A DNA stretch of 64,000 nt. It comes from Squalus acanthias (lineage: Eukaryota). The position numbers and the translations under genes are program-made. The notes beneath the pieces are model-generated. The model did not search any database. It was not told the DNA's origin and was given only the letters and a program-made list of their open reading frames with translations. Positions 3,153-50,129 of this stretch are shown in pieces (positions within the stretch are counted from its first letter, which is position 1; each line of letters begins with the position of its first letter). The stretch spans positions 139,750,001 to 139,814,000 of the forward strand of contig CM059431.1 of assembly GCA_030390025.1 (NCBI GenBank), given 5' to 3'.

Positions 3153-3300
3153 GTAGCCATGATGTGGAGGTGCCGGTGTTGGACTGGGGTGGACAAATGT
3201 GAGAAGTCACACAACACCAGGTTATAGTCCAACAGCTTTATTTGAAATCACAAGCTTTCGGAGCGCTGCTCCTTCGTCAGGTGTTGTGCGACTTCTCACA
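3153..3300 (-). mobile_element. Short Penelope-like insertion with a minimal hammerhead motif and inverted tail
   Basis: Minus strand cacCTGACGAaggagcagcgctccGAAAgcttgtg (3249-3283); internal inverted repeat tgtgagaagtcacacaacacc / ggtgttgtgcgacttctcaca; flanked by a 12-bp direct repeat tgtgtgtttaga (3141-3152) / tgtgtatttaga (3301-3312). Confidence 0.75.
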
Positions 3301-9630: not shown

Positions 9631-9940
9631 TTCTGAAGGAGCTGGAAAGTGGGCCTGGGGAGGATCGCTCTCTGTCGGCCGGCCGGCGGGGACAAGACTC
9701 CTTCTGTGCTGTAAATGTCTCTGATTCTCTGATCCCCAAACTCACCCGCACCATCGCCGCCCGCCCAGTCTGTGATACGGCTCCATCCGCCACTCCTCAG
9801 TCTGGTTCCCAGCCTCTCCCCGGTAACTCGGACCGTTTCTCCCTCAAGGAATTTTACTTCCTCCGGGTACAAGACTGGGGTGGGGTCAGTACCGAGCATG
9901 CGCACTGCGGCCACAGTGTCCACAAGAGCAATAAATAACG

Positions 9941-10335
9941 ATAGCAAAATACTGCGGATGCTGGAAATCCGAAATAACAACAGAAAACGCTGGAAAAACT
10001 CAGCAGGCCAGGCAGCATCCGTGGAGAGAGAAAGAGAGTTAACGTTTCAGGTCGATGACCTTTCATCAGAACTGGGAAGAGCCGGAAATCAAATAGATTT
10101 AAGGCCAGGGTAAAGAGCCAAACGGAAATCCCGTCGAAGAGAAGAGCAGAACTTCTTCAAGGTAGGCATTCCAAGAAGAGAGGTGGCAGTGAACCAAACA
10201 CTAATACGATAGCAAAATACTGCGGATGCAGGAAATCCGAAATAACAACAGAAAACGCTGGAAAAACTCAGCAGGCCAGGCAGCATCCGTGGAGAGAGAA
10301 AGAGAGTTAACGTTTCAGGTCGATGACCTTTCATC
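9941..10335 (-). mobile_element. Young non-autonomous Penelope-like insertion with two tandem terminal repeats
   Basis: Perfect 16-bp direct repeat agagcaataaataacg at 9925-9940 and 10336-10351; two ~133-bp copies (9938-10070, 10206-10338) differing at one visible base; spacer reads MPTLKKFCSSLRRDFRLAL on the minus strand, possibly an ORF start. Confidence 0.85.
10037..10073 (-). ncRNA. Minimal type I hammerhead ribozyme motif (second copy at 10305-10341)
   Basis: Minus strand agtt-CTGATGA-a-aggtc-atc-gacct-GAAAC-GTT^aact: stem I agtt/aact, stem II aggtc/gacct, palindromic stem III ACGT, NUH site GUU. Confidence 0.7.
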
Positions 10336-10638
10336 AGAGCAATAAATAACGTCGATCACTGAGCTCGTCTCTTCTATTGGGTGCGACTCATAGATTGACT
10401 GCCGCATACAACCAATGGGAGCCCGGACCGCCACAGGGCCCCGCCCAGTGTGCTGAAGGGCCGCTGTCGGGCCGGAGTCACGTGTCTCCTGACATGTCCT
10501 CCCGCGCGGCCGTTCAACCGCCTCAGCGCGAGCGCGGGAGCGCGCGGATGACGTCATAGCTTCTCCCACAGCGGCTGCCGTTCCTGAGGGTGGGGGCCAC
10601 TCCCAATGCGCCTGCACCAGACTCACTCTTAAGGAATA

Positions 10639-10890
10639 CCTCACTCTGTCAGAGCTGGTACTGGTCCCACTCCTCCAGTATTAACAGTGAGTCTTATCAC
10701 ACAGCACTGATGAATCCCTCACTCTGTCAGTGCTGGTACTGGTCCCACTCCTCCAGTATTAACAGTGAGTCTTATCTCACAGCACTGGTGAATCGCTCAC
10801 TCTGTCAGTGCTGGTACTGGTCCCACTCCTGCAGTATGAACAGTGAGCCTTATCTCACAGCACTGGTGAATCCCTCACTCTGTCAGACTG
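10639..10890. repeat. Minisatellite, 78 bp unit, ~3.2 copies
   Basis: cctcactctgtcagtgctggtactggtcccactcctccagtattaacagtgagtcttatc... starting at 10639, 10717, 10795 and 10873. Confidence 0.95.
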
Positions 10891-13800
10891 AACCCCCCCT
10901 CTCTCAGACTGAACCGCCCCCTCTATCAGACTGAACCGCCCCTCTCTCAGACTGAACCGCCCCTCTCTCAGACTGAACACACCCTCTCTCAGACTGAACC
11001 GCCCCCTCTCTCAGACTGAACCCCCCCTCTCTAAGACTGAATCGTCCCCTCTCTCAGACTGAACTGCCCCCTCTCTCAGAGTGAACCGTCCCCTCTCTCA
11101 GATTGAACCATCCCCTCTCTCATACTGAACCCCCTCTCTCAGACTGAACCCCCCCCTCTCTCAGACTGAACCGTCCCCTCTCTCAGACTGAACCCCCCCT
11201 CTCAGACTGAACGGTCCCCTCTCTCAGACTGAACCGTCCCCTCTCTCAGACTGAACCGTCCCCTCAGACTGAACCGTCCCTCTCTCAGACTGAAACCCCC
11301 CCTCTCTCAGACTGAAACCCGCCTCTCTCTCAGACTGAACCCCCCCTCTTTCAGACTGAACCGTCCCCTCTCTCAGACTGAACCGTCCCCTCTCTCAGAC
11401 TGAACGGTCCCCTCTCTCAGACTGAACCGTCCCCTCTCTCAGACTGAACCGTCCCCTCAGACTGAACCGTCCCCTCTCTCAGACTGAAACCCCCCCTCTC
11501 TCAGACTGAAACCCCCCTCTCTCTCAGACTGAACCCCCCCTCTTTCAGACTGAACCTTCCCCTCTCTCAGACTGAACCGTCCCCTCTCTCAGACTGACCC
11601 CCCCCCCCTCTCAGACTGAACCTCCCCTCTCTCAGACTGAACCGTCCCCTCTCTCAGACTGAACCGCCCATCTCAGACTGAACCGTCCCCTCTCTCAGAC
11701 TGAACTGCCCCTCTCAGACTGAACCGTCCCCTCTCTCAGACTGAACCGCCCCCTCTCTCAGACTGAACCATCCCCTTGCTCAGTCTGAACCAGCCTCTCT
11801 CTCAGACTGAACCCCCCCTCTCTCAGACTGAACCACGCCTCTCTCAGACTGAACCCCCCCCTCTCTCAGACTGAACCACGCCTCTCTCAGACTGAACCGC
11901 CCCGTCTCTCTCAGACTGAACCGTCCCCTCTCTCAGGCTGAACGGTCCCCTCTCTCAGACTGAACCGCCCCCTCTCTCAGACTGAACCGTCCCCTCTCTC
12001 AGACTCAACCGTCCCCTCTCTCAGACTGAACCATCCCCTCTCTCAGACTGAACCATCCCCTCTCTCAGACTGAACCCTCACTATCTCAGTCTGAACCCCC
12101 CCCTCTAAGACTGAACCCCCCCTCTCTCAGAATGAACCCCCCCTCTCTCCGACTGAATCGACCTCTCAGACTGAACCGCCCCCTCTCTCAGACTGAACCG
12201 TTCCCTCTCTCACACTGAACCGTCCAGATTCTCAGACTGAACCCCGCCTCTCTCAGACTGAACCGTCCCCTCTCTCAGACTGAACCGTCCCCTCTCTCAG
12301 ACTGAAACCCCCCCTCTCTCAGACTGAAACCCCCTCTCTCAGCCTGAACCCCCCTCTCTCTCAGACTGAACCCCCCTCTTTCAGACTGAACCGACCCCTC
12401 TCTCAGACTGAACCATCCCCTCTCTCAGACTGAACACCCCCTCTCTCAGACTGAACCCCCCCTCTCTCAGACTGAACCGCCCATCTCAGACTGAATCGTC
12501 CCCTCTCTCAGACTAAACCGTCCCTTCTATCAGTCTGAACCGCCCCCTCTCTCAGTTTGAACCGTCCCCTCTCACAGACTGAACCGTCCCCTCGCTCAGT
12601 ATGAACCACCCTCTCTCTCAGACTGAACCTCCCCCTCTCTCAGACTGAACCGCCCCCTCTCTCAGACTGAACCGTCCCCTCTCTCAGGCTGAACCGTCCC
12701 CTCTCTCAGACTGAACCGTCCCCTCTCTCAGACTGAACCGTCCCCTCTCTCAGACTGAACCGTCCCCTCTCTCAGACTGAACCGTCCCCTCTCTCAGGCT
12801 GAACCCGCACTATCTCAGTCTGAACTCCCCCCTCTCAGACAAAACCCCACCTCTCTCAGAATGAACCCCCCCTCTCTCCGACTGAACCGACCTCTCAGAC
12901 TAAACCGCCCCCTCTCTCAGACTGAACCGTTCCCTCTCTCAGACTGAACCGTCCACTTTCTCAGACTGAATCCCGCCTCTCTCAGACTGAGCCCCCCCTC
13001 TCTCAGAATGAAACCCCCTCTCTCCGACTGAACCGACCTCTCAGACTAAACCGCCCCCTCTCTCAGACTGCACCCCCCCTCTTTCAGACTGAACCGTCCC
13101 CTCTCTCAGACTGAACCGCCCCTCTCAGACTGAACCGCCCCCTCTCTCAGACTGAACCGTCCCTTCTCTCAGTCTGAACCGCCCCCTCTCTCAGTCTGAA
13201 CCGTCCCCTCTCTCAGACTGAACCGTCCCCTCTCTCAGTCTGAACCATCCTCTGTCTCAGACTGAACTGCCCCCTCTCTCAGACTGAACCGTCCCCTCTC
13301 TCAGACTGAACCGCCCCTCTCAGACTGAACCGTCCCCTCTCTCAGACTGAACCGCCCCCTCTCTCAGACTGAACCATCCCTTCTATCAGTCTGAACCGCC
13401 CCCTCTCTCAGTCTGAACCGTCCCCTCTCTCAGACTGAACCGTCCCCTTGCTCAGACTGAACCACGCCTCTCTCAGACTGAACCCCCCCCTCTCTCAGAC
13501 TGAACCACGCCTCTCTCAGACTGAACCGCCCCTCTCTCTCAGACTGAACCGTCCCCTCTCTCAGGCTGAACGGTCCCCTCTCTCAGACTGAACCGCCCCC
13601 TCTCTCAGACTGAACCGTCCCCTCTCTCAGACTCAACCGTCCCCTCTCTCAGACTGAACCATCCCCTCTCTCAGACTGAACCATCCCCTCTCTCAGACTG
13701 CACCCTCACTATCTCAGTCTGAACCCCCCCCTCTAAGACTGAACCCCCCCTCTCTCAGAATGAACCCCCCCTCTCTCCGACTGAATCGACCTCTCAGATT

Positions 13801-16800
13801 GAACCGCCCCCTCTCTCAGACTGAACCGTTCCCTCTCTCACACTGAACCGTCCAGATTCTCAGACTGAACCCCGCCTCTCTCAGACTGAACCGTCCCCTC
13901 TCTCAGACTGAACCGTCCCCTCTCTCAGGCTGAAACCCCCCCTCTCTCAGACTGAAACCCCCTCTCTCAGCCCTGAACCCCCCTCTCTCTCAGACGGAAC
14001 CTCCCCTCTTTCAGACTGAACCGACCCCTCTCTCAGACTGAACCGTCCCCTCTCTCAGACTGAACCCCCACTCTCTCAGACTGAACCCCCCCTCTCTCAG
14101 ACTGAACCGCCCATCTCAGACTGAATCGTCCCCTCTCTCAGACTATACCGTCCCTTCTATCAGTCTGAACCGCCCCCTCTCTCAGTCTGAACCGTCCCCT
14201 CTCTCAGACTGAACCGTCCCCTCGCTCAGTCTGAACCACCCTCTCTCTCAGACTGAACCCACCCCTCTCTCAGACTGAACCGCCCCCTCTCTCAGACTGA
14301 ACTGTCCCCCTCTCTCAGGCTGAACCGTCCCCTCTCTCAGACTGAACCGTCCCCTCTCTCAGACTGAACCGTCCCCTCTCTCAGACTGAACCGTCCCCTC
14401 TCTCAGACTGAACCATCCCCTCTCTCAGGCTGAACCCTCACTATCTCAGTCTGAACTCCCCTATCTCAGACTGAACCCCACCTCTCTCAGAATGAACCCC
14501 CCCTCTCTCCGACTGAACCGACCTCTCAGACTAAACCGCCCCCTCTCTCAGACTGAACCGTTCCCTCTCTCAGACTGAACCGTCCACTTTCTCAGACTGA
14601 ACCCCGCCTCTCTCAGACTGAGCCCCCCCTCTCTCAGAATGAAACCCCCTCTCTCCGACTGAACCGACCTCTCAGACTAAACCGCCCCCTCTCTCAGACT
14701 GAACCGTCCCCTCTCTCAGATTGAACCGTCCCCTCTCTCAGACTGAACGGTCCCCTCTCTCAGACTGAACCGTCCCCTCTCTCAGACTGAACCGTCCCCT
14801 CAGACTGAACCGTCCCCTCTCTCAGACTGAAACCCCCCCTCTCTCAGACTGAACCCCCCTCTCTCAGACTGAACCCCCCTCTCTCTGAGACTGCACCCCC
14901 CCTCTTTCAGACTGAACCGTCCCCTCTCTCAGACTGAACCGCCCCTCTCAGACTGAACCGTCCCCTCTCTCAGACTGAACCGCCCCTCTCAGACTGAACC
15001 GTCCCCTCTCTCAGACTGAACCGCCCCCTCTCTCAGACTGAACCGTCCCTTCTCTCAGTCTGAACCGCCCCCTCTCTCAGTCTGAACCGTCCCCTCTCTC
15101 AGACTGAACCGTCCCCTCTCTCAGTCTGAACCATCCTCTGTCTCAGACTGAACTGCCCCCTCTCTCAGACTGAACCGTCCCCTCTCTCAGACTGAACCGT
15201 CCCCTCTCTCAGACTGAACCACCCCTCTCTCAGACTGAACTGCCCCCTCTCTCAGTCTGAAGCCCACCTCTCTCAGTCTGAACCCCCTCTCTCTCAGACT
15301 GAACCGTCCCCTCTCTCAGTCTGAACCACCCTCTCTCTCAGACTGAACTGCCCCCTCTCTCAGACTGAACCGTCCCCTCTCTCAGACTGAACCACCCCTC
15401 TCTCAGACTGAACCGTCCCCTCTCTCTGACTGAACCACCCCTCTCTCAGACTGAACCGCCAAATCTCTCCGACTGAACCGCCCCCTCTCTCAGACTGAAC
15501 CACCCTCTCTCTCAGACTGAACTGCCCCCTCTCTCAGACTGAACCATCCCTCTCTCAGACTGAACCCCCCTCGCTCAGACTGAACCGCCCCCTCTCTCAG
15601 ACTGAACCGTCCCTCTCTCAGACTGAACCGTCCCCTCTCTCAGACTGAACCCCCCTCTCTCAGTCTGAACCGTCCCCTCTCTCAGACTGAACCGCCCCCT
15701 CTCTCAGACTGAACCGTCCCTCTCTCAGACTGAACCGTCCCCTCTCTCAGACTGAACTCCCCCCTCTCTCAGACTGAACCGTCCCTCTCTCAGGCTGAAA
15801 TGTCCCCCTCTCAGACTGAACCGCCCCCTCTCTCAGACTTATCCCCCACTCTCTCAGGCTGAACCTCCCCTCTCTCAGACTGAACCACCCCCTCTCTCAG
15901 ACTGAACCGCCCCCTCTCTCAGACTGAACCGTCCCCTCTCTCAGACTGAACCGTCCACTCTCTCAGACTGAACCGCCCCTCTCAGTCTGTACCGCCCCCT
16001 CTCTCAGACTGAACTGCCCCCTCTCTCAGACTGAACCGCCCCCTCTCTCAGACTGAACCACCCTCTGTCTCGGACTGAACCGTACCTCTCTCAGACTGAA
16101 CCCCCACTCTCTCAGGCTGAACCTCCCCTCTCTCAGACTGAACCCCCACTCTCTCAGGCTGAACCTCCCCTCTCTCAGACTGAACCGCCCCCTTTCTCAG
16201 ACTGAACCGCCCCCTCTCTCAGACTGAACCACCCCCTCTCTCAGACTGATCCGCCCCCTCTCTCAGACTGAACCGTCCCCTCTCTCAGACAGAACCACCC
16301 CCTCTCTCAGACTGAACCGCCCCCTCTCTCAGACTGAACCACCCTCTGTCTCGGACTGAACCGTACCTCTCTCAGATTGAACCCCCACTCTCTCAGACTG
16401 AACCGCCCCCTCTCTCAGACTGAACCGCATCCTCTCTCAGACTGAACTGCCCCCTCTCTCAGACTGAACCGCCCCTCTCTCAGACTGAACCACCCCCTCT
16501 CTCAGACTGAACCGTCCCCTCTCTCAGTCTGAACCACCCTCTGTCTCGGACTGAACCGTCCCCTCTCTCAGACTGAACCGTCCCCTCTCTCAGACTGAAC
16601 CCCTCCTCTCTCAGACTGAACCGTTCCCTCTCTCAGACTGAACCACCCTCTGTCTCGGACTGAACCGCCCCTCTCTCAGACAGAACCACCCTCTGTCTCG
16701 GACTGAACCACACCCTCTCTCAGACTGAACCGTCCCCTCTCTCAGTCTGAACCACCCTCTGTCTCGGACTGAACCGTCCCCTCTCTCAGACTGAACCGTC

Positions 16801-19800
16801 CCCTCTCTCAGACTGAACACACCCTCTCTCAGACTGAACCGCCCCTCTCTCAGACTGAACCACCCTCTGTCTCGGACTGAACCGTCCCCTCTCTCAGACT
16901 GAACCGTTCCCTCTCTCAGTCTGAACCCCCCTCTCTCAGACTGAACCACCCCTCTCTCAGACTGAACCACCCCCTCTCTCAGACTGAACCGTCCCCTCTC
17001 TCAGACTGAACCGTCCCCTCTCTCAGACTGAACCGTCCCCTCTCTCAGACTGAACCACCCTCTGTCTCGGACTGAACCACCCCCTCTCTCAGACTGAACC
17101 GTCCCCTCTCTCAGACTGAACCACCCTTCTCTCAGACTGAACCGTCCCCTCTCTCAGACTGAACATTCCCCTCTCTCAGACTGAACTGTCCCCTCTCTCA
17201 GACTGAACCGTCCCCTCTCTCAGACTGACCCGTCCCCTCTCTCAGACTGAACCGTCCCCTCTCTCAGACTGAACCATCCCCTCTCTCAGACTGAACCACC
17301 CTCTGTCTCGGACATAACCAGCCCCTCTCTCAGACTGAACCACCCCCTCTCTCAGAGTGAACCGTCCCCTCTCTCAGACTGAACCACCCTCTGTCTCGGA
17401 CTGAACCACCCCTGTCTCAGACTGAACCGTCCCCTCTCTCAGACTGAACTGTCCCCTCTCTCAGACTGAACCGTCCCCTCTCTCAGACTGAACCGTCCCC
17501 TCTCTCAGACTGAACCCCCCCTCTCTCAGACTGAACCGTCCCATCTCTCAGTCTGAACCGTCCCCTCTCTCAGACTGAACCCCCCTCTCTCAGTCTGAAC
17601 TGTCCCCTCTCTCAGACTGAACCACCCTCTCTCAGACTGAACCACCCTCTGTCTCAGACTGAACCACCCTCTCTCAGACTGAACCACCCGCTCTCAGACT
17701 GAACTACCCGCTCTCTCAGACTGAACCGTCCCCTCTCTCAGACTGAACCACCCTCTCTCAGACTGAACCACCCCCTCTCTCAGACTGAACCACCCTCTGT
17801 CTCAGACTGAACCGTCCCCTCTCTCAGACTTAACCGTCCCCTCTCTCAGACTGAACCGTCCCCTCTCTCAGACTGAAACGTCCCCACTCTCAGACTGAAC
17901 CGTCCCCTCTCTCAGACTGAACCCCCCCTCTCTCAGACTGAACCGTCCCCTCTCTCAGTCTGAACCGTCCCCTCTCTCAGACTGAACCGTCCCCTCTCTC
18001 AGACAGAACCACCCCCTCTCTCAGACTGAACCGCCCCCTCTCTCAGACTGAACCACCCTCTGTCTCGGACTGAACCGTACCTCTCTCAGACTGAACCCCC
18101 ACTCTCTCAGGCTGAACCTCCCCTCTCTCAGACTGAACCCCCACTCTCTCAGGCTGAACCACCCATCTCTCAGGCTGAACCACCCCCTCTCTCAGACTGA
18201 ACCACCCCCTCTCTCAGACTGAACCGCCCCCTCTCTCAGACTGAACCGTCCCCTCTCTCAGTCTGTACCGCCTCCTCTCTCAGACTGAACCGCCCACTCT
18301 CTCAGACTGAACCGCCCCCTCTCTCAGACTGAACCGCCCCCTCTCTCAGACTGAACCGCCCCTCTCTCAGACTGAACCACCCCCTCTCTCAGACTGAACC
18401 GTCCCCTCTCTCAGTCTGAACCACCCTCTGTCTCGGACTGAACCGTCCCCTCTCTCAGACTGAACCGTCCCCTCTCTCAGACTGAACCACCCCTCTCTCA
18501 GACTGAACCGTCCCCTCTCTCAGACTGAACATTCCCCTCTCTCAGACTGAACCGTCCCCTCTCTCAGACTGAACCGTCCCCTCTCTCAGACTGAACCGCC
18601 CCTCTCTCAGACTGAACCGTCCCCTCTCTCAGACTGAACCCCCCCTCTCTCAGACTGAACCGTCCCATCTCTCAGTCTGAACCGTCCCCTCTCTCAGACT
18701 GAACCCCCCTCTCTCAGTCTGAACTGTCCCCTCTCTCAGACTGAACCACCCTCTCTCAGACTGAACCACCCTCTGTCTCAGACTGAACCACCCTCTCTCA
18801 GACTGAACCACCCTCTCTCAGACTGAACTACCCTCTCTCTCAGACTGAACCGTCCCCCTCTCAGACTGAACCACCCTCTCTCAGACTGAACCACCCCCTC
18901 TCTCAGACTGAACCACCCCCTCTCTCAGACTGAACCACCCTCTGTCTCAGACTGAACCACCCTCTCTCAGACTGAACCACCCCTCTCTCAGACTGAACCA
19001 CCCCCTCTCTCAGACTGAACCACCCCTCTCTCAGACTGAACCACCCTCTGTCTCAGACTGAACCACCCCTCTCTCAGTCTGAACCACCCCCTCTGTCTCA
19101 GTCTGAACCGTCCCCTCTCTCAGACTTAACCGTCCCCTCTCTCAGACTGAACCGTCCCCTCTCTCAGACTGAACCGTCCCCACTCTCAGACTGAACCGTC
19201 CCCTCTCTCAGACTGAACCCCCCCTCTCTCAGACTGAACCGTCCCCTCTCTCAGTCTGAACCGTCCCCTCTCTCAGACTGAACCGTCCCCTCTCTCAGAC
19301 AGAACCACCCCCTCTCTCAGACTGAACCGCCCCCTCTCTCAGACTGAACCACCCTCTGTCTCGGACTGAACCGTACCTCTCTCAGACTGAACCCCCACTC
19401 TCTCAGGCTGAACCTCCCCTCTCTCAGACTGAACCCCCACTCTCTCAGGCTGAACCACCCCTCTCTCAGACTGAACCACCCCCTCTCTCAGACTGAACCG
19501 CCCCCTCTCTCAGACTGAACCACCCCCTCTCTCAGACTGAACCGCCCCCTCTCTCAGACTGAACCGTCCCCTCTCTCAGTCTGTACCGCCTCCTCTCTCA
19601 GACTGAACCGCCCCCTCTCTCAGACTGAACCGCCCCCTCTCTCAGACTGAACCGCCCCCTCTCTCAGACTGAACCGCCCCTCTCTCAGACTGAACCACCC
19701 CCTCTCTCAGACTGAACCGTCCCCTCTCTCAGTCTGAACCACCCTCTGTCTCGGACTGAACCGTCCCCTCTCTCAGACTGAACCGTCCCCTCTCTCAGAC

Positions 19801-22190
19801 TGAACCACCCCTCTCTCAGACTGAACCGTCCCCTCTCTCAGACTGAACATTCCCCTCTCTCAGACTGAACCGTCCCCTCTCTCAGACTGAACCACCCTCT
19901 GTCTCGGTCTGAACCGCCCCTCTCTCAGACTGAACCACCCTCTGTCTCGGACTGAACCACACCCTCTCTCAGACTGAACCGTCCCCTCTCTCAGACTGAA
20001 CCGTCCCCTCTCTCAGACTGAACCCCCCCTCTCTCAGACTGAACCGCCCCTCTCTCAGACTGAACCACCCTCTGTCTCGGACTGAACCGTCCCCTCTCTC
20101 AGACTGAACCGTTCCCTCTCTCAGTCTGAACCCCCCTCTCTCAGACTGAACCACCCCTCTCTCAGACTGAACCACCCCCTCTCTCAGACTGAACCGTCCC
20201 CTCTCTCAGACTGAACCGTCCCCTCTCTCAGACTGAACCGTCCCCTCTCTCAGACTGAACCACCCTCTGTCTCGGACTGAACCACCCCCTCTCTCAGACT
20301 GAACCGTCCCCTCTCTCAGACTGAACCACCCCTCTCTCAGACTGAACCGTCCTCTCTCTCAGACTGAACCGTCCCCTCTCTCAGACTGAACCGTCCCCTC
20401 TCTCAGACTGAACCGTCCCCTCTCTCAGACTGAACCGTCCCCTCTCTCAGACTGAAACGTCCCCTCTCTCAGACTGAACCACCCTCTGTCTCGGACTTAA
20501 CCACCCCCTCTCTCAGACTGAACCACCCCCTCTCTCAGACTGAACTGTCCCCTCTCTCAGACTGAACCACCCTCTGTCTCGGACTGAACCACCCCTCTCT
20601 CAGACTGAACCACCCTCTGTCTCGGACTGAACCGTCCCCTCTCTCAGACTGAACCGCCCCTCTCTCAGACTGAACCGTCCCCTCTCTCAGACTGAACCGT
20701 CCCCTCTCTCAGACTGAACCGTCCCCTCTCTCAGACTGAACCGTCCCCTCTCTCAGACTGAACCGTCCCCTCTCTCAGACTGAACCGTCCCCTCTCTCAG
20801 ACTGAACCCCCCCTCTCTCAGACTGAACCGTCCCCTCTCTCAGACTGAACCGTCCCCTCTCTCAGACTGAACCCCCCTCTCTCAGTCTGAACTGTCCCCT
20901 CTCTCAGACTGAACCACCCTCTCTCAGACTGAACCACCCTCTGTCTCAGACTGAACCGTCCCCTCTCTCAGACTGAACCACCCTCTCTCAGACTGAACTA
21001 CCGTCTCTCTCAGACTGAACCGTCCCCTCTCTCAGACTGAACCACCCTCTCTCAGACTGAACCACCCCCTCTCTCAGACTGAACCACCCCCTCTCTCAGA
21101 CTGAACCACCCTCTGTCTCAGACTGAACCACCCTCTCTCAGACTGAACCACCCCTCTCTCAGACTGAACCACCCCCTCTCTCAGACTGAACCACCCCTCT
21201 CTCAGACTGAACCACCCTCTGTCTCAGACTGAACCACCCCTCTCTCAGTCTGAACCACCCCCTCTGTCTCAGTCTGAACCGTCCCCTCTCTCAGACTTAA
21301 CCGTCCCCTCTCTCAGACTGAACCGTCCCCTCTCTCAGACTGAACCGTCCCCTCTCTCAGACTGAACCGTCCCCTCTCTCAGACTGAACCCCCCCTCTCT
21401 CAGACTGAACCGTCCCCTCTCTCAGTCTGAACCGTCCCCTCTCTCAGACTGAACCCCCCTCTCTCAGTCTGAACTGTCCCCTCTCTCAGACTGAACCACC
21501 CTCTCTCAGACTGAACCACCCTCTGTCTCAGACTGAACCACCCTCTGTCTCAGACTGAACCACCCTCTCTCAGACTGAACCACCCCTCTCTCAGTCTGAC
21601 CCACCCCCTCTCTCAGACTGAACCACCCCTCTCTCAGACTGAACCACCCTCTGTCTCAGACTGAACCACCCCTCTCTCAGTCTGAACCACCCCCTCTGTC
21701 TCAGTCTGAACCGTCCCCTCTCTCAGACTGAACCGTCCCCTCTCTCAGTCTGAACCACCCCTCTCTCAGACTGAACCCCCCTCTCTCAGACTGAACCACC
21801 CACTCTCTCAGACTGAACCACCCCCTCTCTCAGTCTGAACCACCCCCTCTGTCTCAGTCTGAACCACCCCTCTCTCAGACTGAACCGTCCCCTCTCTCAG
21901 ACTGAACCGTCCCCTCTCTCAGACTGAACCGTCCCCTCTCTCAGACTGAACCGCCCTCTGTCTCAGTCTGAACCGTCCCCTCTCTCAGACTGAACCGTCC
22001 CCTCTCTCAGTCTGAACCCCCCTCTCTCAGACTGAACCACCCTCTCTCAGACTGAACCGTCCCCTCTCTCAGTCTGAACCACCCCTCTCTCAGACTGAAC
22101 CCCCCTCTCTCAGACTGAACCACCCTCTCTCAGTCTGAACCGTCCCCCCTCTCTCAGACTGAACCCCCCTCTGTCTCGGTCTAATCCGCT
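10880..22190. repeat. Large satellite, ~22 bp unit (cagactgaaccgtcccctctct), ~11.3 kb, ~500 copies
   Basis: Continuous array with an almost invariant tcagactgaacc core and a variable C/CT tract. Confidence 0.99.
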
Positions 22191-28104: not shown

Positions 28105-29253
28105 CTACCTCGTGAAGGTGTTGGCTACCAGCTGCTCCCGAGCAGCCTTACTTTCAGCAGCACTTGGCTCCTCCCCATCAGGCCTGGCCACAGGCACATC
28201 GGCATCGTCCATGTCCTCCATTTCAGCAGGGAGCTCCTCTGCGGGGTTAAGGGTCAGTCCTTCCCACAGGGCAAAGTTATGCAAAGCACAACAGGCCACC
28301 ACAATCCTTGCCACTTTCAGAGGAGAATACTGCAAGGTCCCCCCTGACCTGTCCAGGCACCGGAAGCGTGATTTCAGAATTCTGATTGTCCTTTCCACCA
28401 CTTGCCGTGTGGACACGTGTGCCCGGTTGTATCTCTCCTGAGCCTCATTATTGGTCTTGTGGTAGGGAGTCATCAGCCATGGTCTTAGCGGGTAGCCCTT
28501 GTCGCCCAATATCCATGCGGATCCTGGAGGCAATGCGCTGAGGGCGCCATATAAGTTCGAGTTATGGAGGACGAAGGAGTCACGATTACTTCCCCAGTGC
28601 TCTGCATTCACGTTTAGGATCCTGAGTTGCGCATCACAGACTATCATGACATTCAATGAATGAAACCCCTTCCTGTTGATGTATGTCACAGGTGCACTCA
28701 GTGGTGCCTTCAATGCAACATGGGTTCCATCAATGGCCCCAATCACTTTGGGGAATCCAGCAATGCTATAAAATGCAAGGGCCATCTCCTTTTGATGGCG
28801 AGTGGACAAGTCAAAGTCAATGAACTCTGAAGCCCTACGGAAAATGGCATCTGTGACCTGGTGAATGCAGGCCCTCGCAGCATTCTTGGAGATGTTGGTA
28901 ATGTTACCGGTCCTTGACTGAAATGACCCACTTGCAAAGAAGTTCAGTGCTGTGGTTACCTTCATGTTCACTGACAAGGCAGTGACGGTCTTCGAGCGTG
29001 TTTGAAGGTCCTCCTTTAACATGTCACATAGTCGGCCGATTGCCTCTTTACTGAAGCGCAGCCTCCTCACACACAACTCCTCCGACAGCATCTCAAATGA
29101 CAGCCTCTCCCTGTACACTCTCTGGGGTGGGTAGTAGTTTCTCCTGATCTGGAGACGGTTATGGTTTCTCAGTCTTCTTTCTTGTTCCCTGGCGTTTCCA
29201 ATTCTCTGAAGCAAAATCGCACCGAGGATCAGGGCAACATCCTCAAGGGGCAT
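28105..29253 (-). CDS. PIF/Harbinger DDE transposase (HARBI1-like), 382 aa, open
   Basis: RLRFSKE...LC and ALNFFASGSFQ N-terminal HTH region; catalytic motifs GAIDGTHV, NRKGFHSLNV, WILGDKGYP, RQVVERTI.ILKSRFRCL, IVVACCALHN. Confidence 0.95.
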   Translation of the reverse strand: MPLEDVALILGAILLQRIGNAREQERRLRNHNRLQIRRNYYPPQRVYRERLSFEMLSEELCVRRLRFSKEAIGRLCDMLKEDLQTRSKTVTALSVNMKVTTALNFFASGSFQSRTGNITNISKNAARACIHQVTDAIFRRASEFIDFDLSTRHQKEMALAFYSIAGFPKVIGAIDGTHVALKAPLSAPVTYINRKGFHSLNVMIVCDAQLRILNVNAEHWGSNRDSFVLHNSNLYGALSALPPGSAWILGDKGYPLRPWLMTPYHKTNNEAQERYNRAHVSTRQVVERTIRILKSRFRCLDRSGGTLQYSPLKVARIVVACCALHNFALWEGLTLNPAEELPAEMEDMDDADVPVARPDGEEPSAAESKAAREQLVANTFTR

Positions 29254-29355
29254 GTTTCTCCCTCACAGGCTTCCTCTTTAAACAGATAAAGTACTTGTAA
29301 GGAAAAAAATGGAAAGAGTTGTAAAAGTAATTTTAATAAAGTAAGTGGCTGGAAA

Positions 29356-39107: not shown

Positions 39108-39996
39108 GTTACATTTATTTAACCAATATCAGAATCAATGTCCAAGGAGATTTAACCACATTCCTCAGCTCTTCTCTGAATTTATTTTGTGTAGCTGCAT
39201 AAACAGGAACACAAGAGCTTATATCCGGTTTCTGTGGCGATGTCGGCAGGAACTGTATAATTGCCTCCGTAATGCGCGGTGTTTTTCAGTCTGGTAGTTA
39301 AAAAACTAACGATAGCCGTCACCCTCAACACTATAAAACTGCCCGATACAGTGAACAGTAAAATGATGGATTTACTTCGGTTCCCCATCTCTGGATCGCT
39401 CTGATTCTCACTGCTGTGACCACGGAGTCTCCTGCGGGCTCTACTGGACACTAAAACACGTCTGATTGTCAAACAATTAAACAGTAATATCAAAGCAAAA
39501 GGAATCCACATCGTTGAAATACCTTGTAACCGGGAGAACACGACACCTGCAGGCGATGAAACATAATCCAGTCCGGGGTAACAAACCCAATGAATATGGT
39601 TAATTATTCGATCAGGTTTATAGGCAATCAAATCTGGAATGTTTTGTAAATAGATCAGGACACAGACCGTTGTTATAGCCACAGCCGTAGTTCTCACTCT
39701 GCAATAATTTGTTTAAAACTTCGGACAACATATAGCTACAAATCGGTCAACTGTGAACCAGATTGTAAACCACACCGACATATCCAGGCTGGTAGAATTG
39801 ATATAAATAATGATCTTACAAACGGCAGTGTAGGACAGGAAGGAATGTGGAAAGTGATTTGTACAAATGTGATACCCTATTACATTGAGGATCAGGACCA
39901 GTAGATCTGCTGTTGCCATGGCCACCATGTAGACAGAGATACACTTGGAAAGGTCGCAGTTTCCTCCGGAGAGAATCACCATTGTCAGTAGGTTCG
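39108..39996 (-). pseudogene. GPR139-like class A GPCR pseudogene (exon 2 only)
   Basis: ANLLTMVILS...YMVAMATADLLV...FTVDRFVAICC; nonsense TAA at 39713-39715; frameshifting deletion in TM7 near 39205; no exon 1 found upstream. Confidence 0.9.
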
Positions 39997-40715
39997 CTCT
40001 GAGAAAGAGAGACAAGAGGTCAGTAACAGGGACACTCGGATAAATCTCACAGCTTATTGTGGGGAAATGTTGAGATGTGTTCCTTTTATTTTTAATATAG
40101 GTGAGCGACATGTTGTTGACATTTTGTTCAAAAGAAATGCATGATTCTGCACTCACTGTAGAGGGACTGAGAATTACCATCCTTCCACCACACTTCAGTC
40201 AGACGTTGTCCAGGTGGCGCGGGGAGGAGGGTCGCTCGGATTCAGTATCGGGAATGGACACGGAGAGCGATCCCCACCACCACAGACACCCAGGCACTGA
40301 TATAGGAGGATATTAACTTTGTGCGATAAAGTAAAAACGGCGACATTGGATCAGCCGTCCGTCATACATCTCTCCCCGATTGTCATTTCAATCACTATCG
40401 CCCCTGACACTAGACTGAGCCTCCATTCACAGTCTAACTGTGCGGTCCAGGTGAAGCCGAAGTACCTCGAAGGGAGGGTGCAGTTACAGATAAAAGACCC
40501 TTAAAGGGCAACCTTGGGTGGTTCTGTATAGTCATAGTTCATATTGGATAGTCAATAAAGAAGCGGATTGCCTTACATACACAAAAACACACATTCCATT
40601 GCAGTGTGGAGCGCTGAAACCATCCCGCCATGAGGCTGGTACCATGTGATGCACCGAGCCAATTTGATGAGTTACTACAGCGGCCCCAGGGAGCAATCGA
40701 TGGAATTTTACATTT

Positions 40716-43504: not shown

Positions 43505-46113
43505 TGTTGCCTTTAAGCAGCAGCAGCAGCAGCAGTAACCCTGTCACGAGCCAGTTGCTGAAGGGCCAGAGATTGTCCACAGGGGCCTTTCACTTGGCAT
43601 CAGAGGTCTCCAGTCACGGGGAAGGGGAAAGCACAGGACGCAGTAGGGTGTCACCTTTTGCAAAATGCACCTCCTTCGATCCTCAGGCACAGTTGCGACG
43701 GGGATATCTGTCAATTTTTTAATGTTTGCTGTTATTTAAATGCTGGCGTTGTGTTATTTCGTGAAATTTATATTTGTGACTCATAGCGTATTTAACCATT
43801 TCGTTTTATATGTAAAGCCTCCAGTCACTTTATTTCTTTATTCAACTTTTTTTTATTAACAACCAATTGAACATTACAACTGTTTAAACAATTAGTAAAT
43901 AGCTAGATTTCATCTTGAATGAAAAGTCTTTATTGCGCTAAGTAACGCAAAAAGTCACATTAAACGGTTTACATTTTTTATCAACCAATTTATCTTTGCA
44001 AATGTTTACAAAGTAGAAAATAGCTAGCTAACAATTTGTATTTCAAGACGAAGAACATCAAAACAGTATAACAAAAGTCTTTAATGGTGCAATAAACATT
44101 TACTGTTTCACTTTAAATTATATCTGTTCTTTTCTGATCCTTGCTGGGGGAGGGGGAGGTAGGAGGCGACACTATCATCACCTCGGAAACGTGTTGGCTA
44201 CTGGCAGTTCCCTGGCAGCTTTGGCTTCGGCAGCACTTGGCTCCTCCCCATCAGGCCTGGCCACAAAGATGTTGGCATCCTCCATGTCCTCCATTTCAGC
44301 AGGGAGCTTGTCTGCAGGGTTAGGGCCAGTCCTTCCCGCAGGGCAAAGTTATGCAAAGCACAAAAGGCCACCACAATCTTTGCCACTTTCAGAGCAGAAT
44401 ACTGCAAACTCCCCCCCGCGTCCTGTCCAGGCACCGGAAGCGTGATTTCAGAACCCCGATTGTCCTCTCCACCACTTGCCGTGTGGACACGTGTGCCTGG
44501 AAGTATCTCTCCTGAGCCTCATTACTGGTCCTGCGGTATGGTGTCATCAACCATGGTTTTATCGGGTAGCCCTTGTCGCCCAATATCCATGCGGATCCTG
44601 GAGGCAATGCACTGCGAGTGCTATATAAGTCTGAGTGACGGAGGACGAAGGAGTCATGAGCACTTCCCCGGTGAACTGCATTCATGTTTAGGATCCTGAG
44701 TTGCGCATCACAGACGATTATTACATTTAATGAATGAAAACCCTTCCTGTTGTTGTATGTCAGAGGTGCATTAATTGGTGGCTTCAGTGCAACATGAGTT
44801 CCATCGACGGCCCCAATCCCTTTGGGGAAGCCAGCAATCCTATAAAATAAAAGGGCTCCTCTCCTTTTGCTGCCGAGTGGACAAGTCGAAGTCTATGAAC
44901 TCTGAAGCCCTGCGGAATATGGCATCTGTAACCTGGTGAAAGTAGGCCCTCGAGCACTCTGGGAGATGTTTGAAATGTCACAGGTGCCTGACTGAACTGA
45001 CCCGAGTGCAAAGAAGTTCAGTGCTGTGGTTACCTTCATGGACACTGACAAGCCAGTGCGGGTCTTCGAGTGTGTTTGAAGGCCGTCATTCAACATGTCA
45101 CATAGTAGGTCAAATGTTTCTTTACAAAATTGCAGCCTGCTCATACACAAATCCTGCAACAGCATCTGAAAAGACAGCCTCTCCCTGTACCCTCTCTGGG
45201 TGGGCAGTAGTTCCTCCTGATTAGGTAGCGGTCTTGGTTCCTCAGTCTTCATTGTTGTTCCCTGGCGTTTTCGATTCTATGGGCCAGAATCACACAACAG
45301 ATAGGGGCAAACTCCTCATGAGGCATGATTCTCCCTCACAGGCTTCCTCTTTAAATAGATGCAGTAACTGTTGGGAAGAAATGGAAAGAGTTGTAAACGT
45401 CATATTAATAAAGTGAGTGGTTAGAAATTCACGGCGGGCGGTGGCGGGAAACGGACGGTATCGGATCGGCCGCCCGTCAGACCCGACTGATCAATATCAC
45501 CGCCCGAGAACAATTTCTAAGACTTTTAAAACATTTTACAAAGTCATACATTAATTTTTAAACAGCATAAAAAAGTTAACATTTAAAACATTCATATATT
45601 TTGGCATAATTTTAAACATGAGTAAATGTGAACAAAATCATTTTTAAACAGTCATTTTCAAGTTTAAAAAAAATAAATCTATTTGAATGGAATGCTCACC
45701 TTGTCCACAGCGAAAGTTCCTCTTCTAATCACCGACACTCCTCAGAACTAGATTCAAAACCAAAGAAATATTTAACAAATTAAAGTTGTTAAAAACTTAA
45801 ATCAGGCTTTTAGTCAAGAACTTTGTTAACATTTAAAGTTAAAACAGTCCGCTTTCCAGCCCCCTGACTTCCACGTCTTCTTCCTGCTTCTTCTTTAGAT
45901 AGAATGTCGGCTGTCCGCCTGCTTTATTTCTGTCGTTGCAGAATCGTCAGTAACTGCTGGCCAGTAGTTGGAAAATTAGCGCAAATCTGCGCCAGATTGC
46001 AATTTCCGATTTTTTAGCGTATACGCTTTGCATGCCTAAACCCGGAACTTGCGCGGCCCCTACGGACTCGTGCGCAAGTCATACGCACCCATAGGTCCGC
46101 AAAATACGGCCCC
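43505..46113. mobile_element. Second PIF/Harbinger copy, left-truncated and degraded
   Basis: Collinear with 27443-30964 (Myb gene 3' end with CAG tract, AT-rich convergent UTRs, transposase, internal hairpin); right end aaaatacggcccc with subterminal motifs matching end type L. Confidence 0.88.
44178..45326 (-). pseudogene. Harbinger transposase pseudogene
   Basis: Frameshifted pieces MKVTTALNFFALGS, RGSAHDSFVL...WILGDKGYP...RQVVERTIGVLKSRFRCLD, VVAFCALHN. Confidence 0.92.
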
Positions 46114-48772: not shown

Positions 48773-49680
48773 TTAATTTTTCATTTCTTTAACAAATATC
48801 AGAATCAATGTCCAAGGAGATTTCACCACCTTCTTCAGCTCTTCCCTGAATTTAGTTTGGGTAGCTGCATAAATACACGTGTTTGTACAGGAACTCAAAT
48901 ACATCAGCAGATACCCGGTTTCAGTGGCGATGTATGCAGGAGATGTATAATCACGTCGGTGATGCACGGCCAGGTTGTTAACTACAAAACTCACGGCAGA
49001 TGTCAGCCACAACAATACAAAACTGGCCGATACAGTGAACAGTAAAATGATGGATTTCCTTCGGTTCTCCATCTCTGGATCGCTCTGATTCTCACTGCTG
49101 TGACCCCGGAGTCCCCTGCGGGCTCTACTGGCGACTAAAATACGTCTGACTGTCAAACAATTAAACAGTAATATCAAAACAAAAGGAATATATGTAATTA
49201 AAATATTTTCTAACTGCGAGAAAGCTACACCTGCAGGCGATGTATAAAATGCCATACTTGGGACGAAATCCCAAGGAACATTGTTGATTATTTGTTTGTG
49301 TTCAAAGGCAAACCAAAATGGGATGTTCTCTAAATAAACCAGGACAGAGACCGTTGTTAAAACCGCGGCCGCAGTTCTCACTGTGCAATACTTTGTTTTA
49401 AACTTCTGACAACATATAGCTACAAATCGATCAAATGTGAAGGAGACGGTAAACCACACCGACATATCCAGGTTGGTACAAGACATGTACATCATGAACT
49501 TACAAACGGCAGTGTAGGACAGGAATGAATCTGGGAAGAGTTTACTAAAAATATGATATACGATTACATTGAGGATCATGACCAGTAGATCTGCTGTTGC
49601 CATGGCCACCATGTAGATCGAGATACATTTGGATAGGCCGCATTTTCCTCTGGAGAGAATCACCATTGTCAACAGGTTCG
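48773..49680 (-). CDS. GPR139-like class A GPCR, exon 2 (joined to exon 1 gives 325 aa)
   Basis: Acceptor ttcttacag|CG; seven hydrophobic segments with MATADLLV, FTFDRFVAICC, IPFVLILLFN, SSCTNTCIYAATQTKFRE; 70+908 nt = 326 codons, open. Confidence 0.92.
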
Positions 49681-50129
49681 CTGTAAGAAAGAGGGACAAG
49701 AGTAAGTAATGGGGACACTCAGATAAATCTGACAGCATATTGTGGGGAGATGAACCGTTGTTTTCCTACTTAGGGTTATGCCCACCTTACAATATAGTCG
49801 AGCATTGACAGTATACCTTTTCAAATGAAAATACTCGTTAAACACCCAATATCGAGGGAGTGAGAATGCGACAACATTCCAGCACACTTCAGTCAGACTG
49901 TGTCAAGCCGGTGGGTGGAGCTTGGTGCTGGGAGGATCGCTCGTATTCAGTATCGGCAATGGTATCGGATAGAGACCCCCAACACCACCGACAACCAGGC
50001 ATTGATGTCTCAACCGAGGGGAATTTTGACTTTGGGCGACAGTGTAAAACGGGCGACTCCGGATCAGCCGACCATGATACATCTCTTCCGAATGAATTTC
50101 CATCGCTATCGCCACTGACACTATATTCT

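Follow-up and report, generated by a model that had tools for sequence, protein, structure and literature searches.

The window (the whole 64,000-nt stretch of Squalus acanthias DNA that was analysed) contains a CpG-rich stretch at about 9660-10620, with a CpG observed/expected ratio of 0.6-1.1 against 0.50 for the window, which is interrupted by an insert (Table 1). The insert carries two 133-bp direct repeats, 132/133 identical and spaced 268 nt, their single mismatch lying at position 10230, where both letters occur within the wider repeat family in public contigs. This verifies the two ~133-bp repeats of 268-nt period that an earlier sequence-only reading of the locus had described. A 16-mer flanks the insert as a perfect direct repeat, and each of its copies overlaps the element by 3 nt. 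On the minus strand, the order is hammerhead, tail and about 93 nt of body start, then a 3-nt microhomology, then 45 nt of upstream pseudo-LTR, hammerhead and tail. Alignment to public contigs resolves the 135-bp "spacer" between the repeats into two pieces that meet at 10113-10115, and 3-nt matches are found at all three joints of the insert (both ends and the internal one). The 268-nt unit is thus present as 1.5 copies, and TRF, including at the settings of a 2026 preprint, detected no tandem array of it.

Table 1. Coordinates of the insert and of the DNA on either side of it
Feature	Position	Strand	Remarks
CpG-rich DNA left of insert, candidate first exon	9740..9924	-	ATG 9754-9752 in good context, splice donor 9745
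16-bp duplication, left copy (probable target-site duplication)	9925..9940	+	Last 3 nt common to element 3' end
Repeat copy B: hammerhead and downstream tail	9938..10070	-	3' end is the family's usual 3' end
Minimal type I hammerhead B	10037..10073	-	4-bp stem I, core from 10069, 5-bp stem II, palindromic ACGU, predicted cut 10041/10040
Pseudo-LTR, 45 nt upstream of hammerhead B	10071..10115	-	Past 10115 other copies diverge (21 and 21 contigs)
Internal junction, 3-nt microhomology	10113..10115		Joins the element's 5' and 3' parts
Element body start, coding-like	10113..10205	-	In-frame ATG 10169; past 10113 other copies diverge (14/15/3 contigs)
Repeat copy A: hammerhead and tail	10206..10338	-	5' end is the family's usual 5' stopping place
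Minimal hammerhead A	10305..10337	-	Core intact; stem I 5' strand is target DNA (1 bp); predicted cut 10309/10308
16-bp duplication, right copy	10336..10351	+	First 3 nt common to element 5' end
CpG-rich promoter-like DNA right of insert	10352..10620		Motif matches, named in the text

The queried stretch is partly present in 24 public runs, four of which (X1, X5, X6 and X12) were aligned, as contigs only. In one contig, found in both X5 and X6, 9906 is followed directly by 10355 and the insert is absent; its nearby sequence differs from the window, it lacks the 16-mer and it falls 21 nt short of an unaltered empty site. Judged by its sequence, it is a related promoter copy and indicates that the insert is not ancient. 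The earlier claim of a young insertion is supported. The same claim had included a perfect target-site duplication. The perfect 16-mer is indeed there on both sides, and its position makes it a probable target-site duplication; this status is not proven, because the sole insert-free related contig seen lacks the 16-mer. At the joint of that contig lies a CCAAT sequence (window 9907-9924 / 10352-10360), and its missing 21 nt include the duplicated 16-mer. One 6-mer opens both the target duplication (9924-9929) and the internal junction (10113-10118), which may be chance.

Each repeat carries a hammerhead core on its minus strand, with an additional base, 5 bp in stem II, a GUU triplet and a palindromic stem III that has no loop; the cores start at 10337 and 10069, and the predicted cuts follow GUU. 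Both copies therefore belong to the minimal, dimer-type class of type I hammerheads to which they had been assigned. The damage to the stem I 5' strand reported for the copy at 10305-10341 was likewise borne out, stem I having 4 bp in copy B and 1 bp in copy A. A strict minimal-hammerhead descriptor matched three times in the window, here twice and once at 3280 in another family, and in none of 100 dinucleotide shuffles; a loose hammerhead pattern discriminated less well, with two matches in the window and 7/100 shuffles reaching two. The hammerhead of the other family, at 3252-3280 on the minus strand, has a 5-bp stem II, a different palindrome and a 3-bp stem I. A covariance-model check, which had been proposed as confirmation, did not provide it: Rfam over the window returned nothing at gathering score, no hammerhead to E 10, hence neither copy, and two chance lncRNA matches (E 2.8 and 6.4). 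The first stem II pair, normally G10.1-C11.1, is A-U in both copies, and some family members in the public contigs have G in place of its A (10061). Cleavage is slower with GUU than with GUC, and slower with A-U than with G-C as the first stem II pair. As an NUH triplet, GUU is cleavable (PMC3138052). Invariant core bases are hit by none of the 40 family variants listed (of 72), which include changes at position 7, the first stem II base and the loop.

The 133-bp repeat belongs, by its occurrence in these contigs, to a very large family. Summed depth relative to the right flank, which is not to be read as copy number, was about 4x10^4-2x10^5 times for the 133-bp repeat and 5x10^2-8x10^3 times for the body and mid-spacer across the four runs. 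Loose contig ends were found before 9943 (261, 174, 36 and 12 contigs in the four runs), and hundreds of contigs stop behind 10072-10075, the 5' edge of the hammerhead; because contig ends cluster at these two places, both ends of the insert are the family's usual ends. Within the spacer, loose ends stand before 10113 (14, 15 and 3 contigs in X1, X5 and X6) and behind 10115 (21 and 21 in X1 and X5), on both sides of 10113-10115 with halves that overlap by 3 nt, and the spacer is therefore the junction of two parts. None of the 32 pieces listed (of about 66,400) crosses 10114, six of them begin at 10109-10119 and one ends at 10115. The link between body and tail at 10205/10206 is bridged by 2 of the 32, with at least 31 letters on each side, and is thus a feature of the family. 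A small young family carrying the 10113-10115 junction may exist beyond the pieces listed, given that young copies so alike would assemble into short contigs.

Minority variants of the family are common to both repeats of the insert (10034/10302 and 9970/10238). Three of the four runs contain joints to the opposite strand at the hammerhead's 5' edge. At 10075, a second common upstream sequence joins the hammerhead in all four (407, 330, 39 and 64 contigs), which suggests, as far as contig sequences can tell, subfamilies with different pseudo-LTRs. The great excess of solo ~133-bp copies over the body would be explained by a fixed internal start near 9941, if the element RNA begins at 10072-10075. 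The window itself holds four partial copies of greater age; one is short, and the other three span 85-115 bp with about 77% identity. Two of the four make up an inverted pair at 2343-2590 whose arms (2384-2466 and 2494-2576) are 86% complementary and lie between 15-nt direct repeats; this pair is probably an older insertion with its own duplication. Both 5'-truncated solo copies and inverted head-to-head copies are therefore seen in the family, in the window and in the contigs. Pattern scans for related loci found none in metagenome_contigs, viral_contigs or genome_contigs. Runs of other organisms contained shares of the stretch near 0.2, which fit the repeat alone.

The half of the spacer that adjoins copy A is an open frame on the minus strand. 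All four variants listed for 10113-10205 are silent in this frame and none of the four in each other frame (chance about 0.004-0.012, with 40 of 72 variants listed); a 3-nt gap at 10152 keeps the frame, and, read by hand, it is open over ten codons of both longer loose-end consensus sequences. On this pattern of variation, the segment looks like the start of a protein gene, 31 codons long. The hammerhead/tail repeat behaves differently, with 5/14 listed variants silent and a core ATG that reads ACG at about half depth, and these non-silent variants and unconserved ATG argue against a long frame beginning in the core. The 26-nt distance from that ATG to the cut equals the distance in an Anolis element; we dropped it as support, as this ATG is not conserved and occupies a different position in the core.

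Searches with the 74-codon frame returned no match to E 1 among longer proteins and none near its own length. Cluster representatives gave six matches, of which four are short unnamed singletons covering the hammerhead/tail part alone and two are repetitive chance matches, and Pfam, PDB and Atlas gave nothing above 0.76. No long protein homologue of Penelope-like elements (PLEs), RT or GIY-YIG, was reached from this frame, and no PLE RT was found within the window, where the RT frames resemble LINEs. These searches gave no link from the frame to a reverse transcriptase, and PLE membership is therefore argued from architecture, not from protein. The best Atlas matches of a receptor gene place the window in a chordate, and it carries LINE-type and DDE transposon remnants. 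DDE_Tnp_4 transposase-like frames lie on the minus strand at 28108-29262 and 44392-44892, and GPR139-like seven-transmembrane receptor frames at 48776-49765 and 39185-40198, also on the minus strand, the second being broken by a stop.

The insert has direct terminal repeats, each with a hammerhead, and minimal hammerheads are found in both repeats of PLEs (Cervera and de la Pena, 2014, PMC4209133). Truncated solo copies and head-to-head pairs, both present in this family, are typical of PLEs (PMC8557442; Arkhipova et al., 2013, PMC3846280; PMC4209133). Paired terminal hammerheads, solo copies and head-to-head copies thus support, at the level of architecture, the Penelope-like origin that had been proposed, and the missing middle would presumably have been that of a PLE.

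We consider it probable that the locus holds a single recent Penelope-like insertion with both of its natural ends and without its middle, whose two hammerheads are the normal terminal-repeat pair and which is most likely an inert copy. The element's endonuclease would have nicked the AT-rich 16-mer inside the CpG island, and reverse transcription would have begun near 9941, the internal start usual in this family, priming on a 3-nt match and copying 178 nt. Either a microhomology template jump at 10113-10115 to the 5' part of the RNA would have followed, or the whole element would have been copied and its middle later lost by microhomology-mediated repair; one allele cannot separate the two. 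Synthesis would have run to the 5' margin of the upstream hammerhead and stopped there, once more on a 3-nt match, so that the 16-bp duplication remained, and the two terminal-repeat hammerheads would thereby have moved from kilobases apart to 268 nt. About 100 nt separate cut B from the 3' end of the insert downstream of it. The Anolis Poseidon element begins reverse transcription of its uncleaved RNA at an internal position ~85-90 nt past the hammerhead cut and does so at AT-rich targets (Frangieh et al., 2024, PMC11167929), and rotifer Penelope copies with target-site duplications carry microhomology-mediated internal deletions (PMC3846280).

In a double hammerhead, each core pairs its own stem I 5' strand with the cleavage site of its partner (PMC4209133); cleavage of hammerhead dimers has been reviewed (PMC6765202). 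In the insert, core B closes 4 bp on site A and core A cannot close on site B (duplex -0.7 vs. +1.8 kcal/mol). By this pairing model, 10309/10308 alone should cut in cis if the RNA is transcribed, weakly at best and by core B on site A, in agreement with the earlier caveat that only one site may cut, which did not name the failing site. The idea of a cis-dimer releasing a 268-nt monomer fares worse: the damaged upstream stem I of copy A would remove the downstream cut, so that the monomer should not be released efficiently in cis and would need a second RNA in trans. The dimer lay above the free ensemble by 10-15 kcal/mol for one site and 17-23 kcal/mol for two, in a folding model that has no active control for scale and of a kind that penalises multiloops. 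Published minimal hammerheads cleave poorly in vitro, even as dimers (PMC4209133), cleavage of a minimal hammerhead needs the protein of the element (PMC11167929), and 1/9 predicted Xenopus dimers cleaved (Li et al., 2026, preprint 10.64898/2026.07.22.740005).

The leading alternative, which we nevertheless regard as unlikely, treats the 268-nt unit as a retrozyme, a non-autonomous derivative of a PLE that is still young, perhaps a hammerhead-cut and ligated circle copied 1.5 times. Its 268 bp, 46% GC and 16-bp duplication fit animal retrozymes (150-450 bp, <50% GC, duplication >4 bp; Cervera and de la Pena, 2020, PMC7229834), the cDNA reads through both cleavage sites as a circle would, and the repeats have minority family variants in common. 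The preprint 10.64898/2026.07.22.740005 moreover derives retrozymes from PLE ends and reports them in the one cartilaginous fish it covers. However, retrozymes are arrays of at least two units with a complete hammerhead in each, whereas here there are 1.5 units and copy A is without stem I; no piece among the 32 listed crosses the junction, and the repeats differ at 10230, with both letters in the family, where one circle would give identical copies. The read-through is equally explained by uncleaved linear RNA (PMC11167929). Animal retrozyme circles are highly self-paired (PMC7229834), and the 268-nt circle folds at -52.7 kcal/mol against a shuffle mean of -51.4 kcal/mol (z -0.3, 200 shuffles). 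The 1.5 copies, the composite spacer, its coding-like part and a circle no more structured than shuffles speak against the independent 268-nt retrozyme unit that the sequence-only reading had put forward.

A retrozyme caught at its birth is, to us, a still fainter prospect. A single deletion would have set the minimal hammerheads 268 nt apart, and kept the 5' body segment that the protein may need, all within an open CpG island, and the unit would be transcribed, cut in trans by the abundant family RNA, circularised and already copied elsewhere.

It is very improbable that the junction was made in RNA, through the splice acceptor of a pseudo-LTR intron, and that the processed RNA was then reverse transcribed. 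PLE repeats do contain introns (PMC4209133, PMC8557442), and reading the minus strand by hand shows that the loose end behind 10115 finishes in a pyrimidine run and CAG exactly at the junction. The strand is pyrimidine-rich throughout, though, and the microhomology allows four registers, which makes the CAG a modest coincidence; the other side of the junction, also read by hand, continues without a GT donor.

The CpG-rich surroundings raise another reading, that the insert serves the host gene, whose promoter it interrupts, as a cis-regulatory element or through self-cleavage, and to this we give equally little credence. The insert does lie within a CpG-rich stretch between promoter-like motifs and a candidate first exon; in the insert-free contig these lie about 430 bp closer together. 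To its right are what we take to be CCAAT boxes at 10380 and 10412, a GC box at 10446, an E-box at 10479 and a CRE-like site at 10549, and to its left presumably an NRF1-like site at 9896 and an ETS-like site at 9861. These motifs on both sides and the first exon on the left suggest, as a matter of motif layout, a host transcription start left of (downstream of) the insert, so that an RNA with both cores, as earlier proposed from a promoter at 10370-10620, is possible and not required. Related promoter copies in two runs lack the insert, however, the dimer fold carries the cost given above in a model without an active control, and minimal hammerheads are weak in vitro (PMC4209133), with 1/9 Xenopus dimers cleaved (10.64898/2026.07.22.740005).

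The candidate first coding exon (9744-9760, minus strand) reads Met-Val-Arg; a strong donor follows, and the presumed intron contains a LINE-like 3' end close to its start. Among 50 minus-strand frames left of the insert, Pfam gave one weak match without a stretch, and no host gene was named. Run X12, by guess an RNA run, has depth at 9781-9831, which we rejected as a hint of a start site, as the DNA runs X1 and X6 stop there too. The same run is without cover at 9853-9924 and low at 10364-10500, which proves nothing. Contigs show neither strand nor start of transcription. A ~22-bp repeat array with strong C-over-G skew begins right of the promoter and extends over about 10870-22000, and 78- and 80-bp repeats lie on both sides of the promoter. 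It is scarcely credible that the assembly produced this arrangement by wrongly joining fragments of repeats: no contig among the pieces listed spans the flank junctions or the internal junction and the aligned runs differ from the window in the flanks, but the perfect 16-bp duplication, the internal microhomology and the one repeat difference are signs of a real insertion.

The insert can be set beside several known systems. The pseudo-LTR hammerheads of metazoan PLEs (PMC4209133) likewise have a palindromic stem III that lacks a loop, a 4-bp stem I and an additional base preceding stem II, with one motif per terminal repeat, very many solo copies and opposite-strand pairs. They differ in a conserved G-C first stem II pair, A-U here, and in a spacing of about 3 kb, against 268 nt in the insert because its middle is missing. 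The Poseidon element PAc of Anolis carolinensis (PMC11167929) also ends about 100 nt past the hammerhead cut in an AT-rich target, has its body after the tail and is copied from uncleaved RNA. In contrast, PAc starts without target homology, where the insert has a 3-nt match at each joint, and its start codon follows G8, where the ATG here lies within the core and is not conserved.

Animal non-LTR retrozymes (PMC7229834, 10.64898/2026.07.22.740005) share with the insert their unit size, low GC, a type I hammerhead per unit, a long duplication and an origin from PLE ends. The insert differs from them in having 1.5 units instead of an array, minimal instead of canonical hammerheads, a coding-like fragment in the unit, no further unit copies among the pieces listed, an ordinary circle fold and a broken upstream stem I. 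Internally deleted Penelopes of Adineta vaga (PMC3846280) show the same microhomology deletion, target-site duplication and terminal repeats that include the ORF start, but with duplications of 8-10 bp and often an inverted repeat; the insert has 16 bp, direct repeats only and has lost nearly the whole body. In the open-access literature we found no study on a repeat family of this shark type or on such a deletion copy.

In its most likely reading, then, the locus holds one broken copy of a very abundant repeat with an already described class of hammerhead, and as such it matters little. That retrozymes are derivatives of PLE ends is already published, in the 2026 preprint (10.64898/2026.07.22.740005). 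The small value of the insert is as a clear snapshot of the route from Penelope ends to retrozymes proposed there, and it may further serve as a natural short dimer construct for tests of minimal hammerheads. If the junction were multi-copy and the RNA circular, the insert would be direct evidence for that route in cartilaginous fish.
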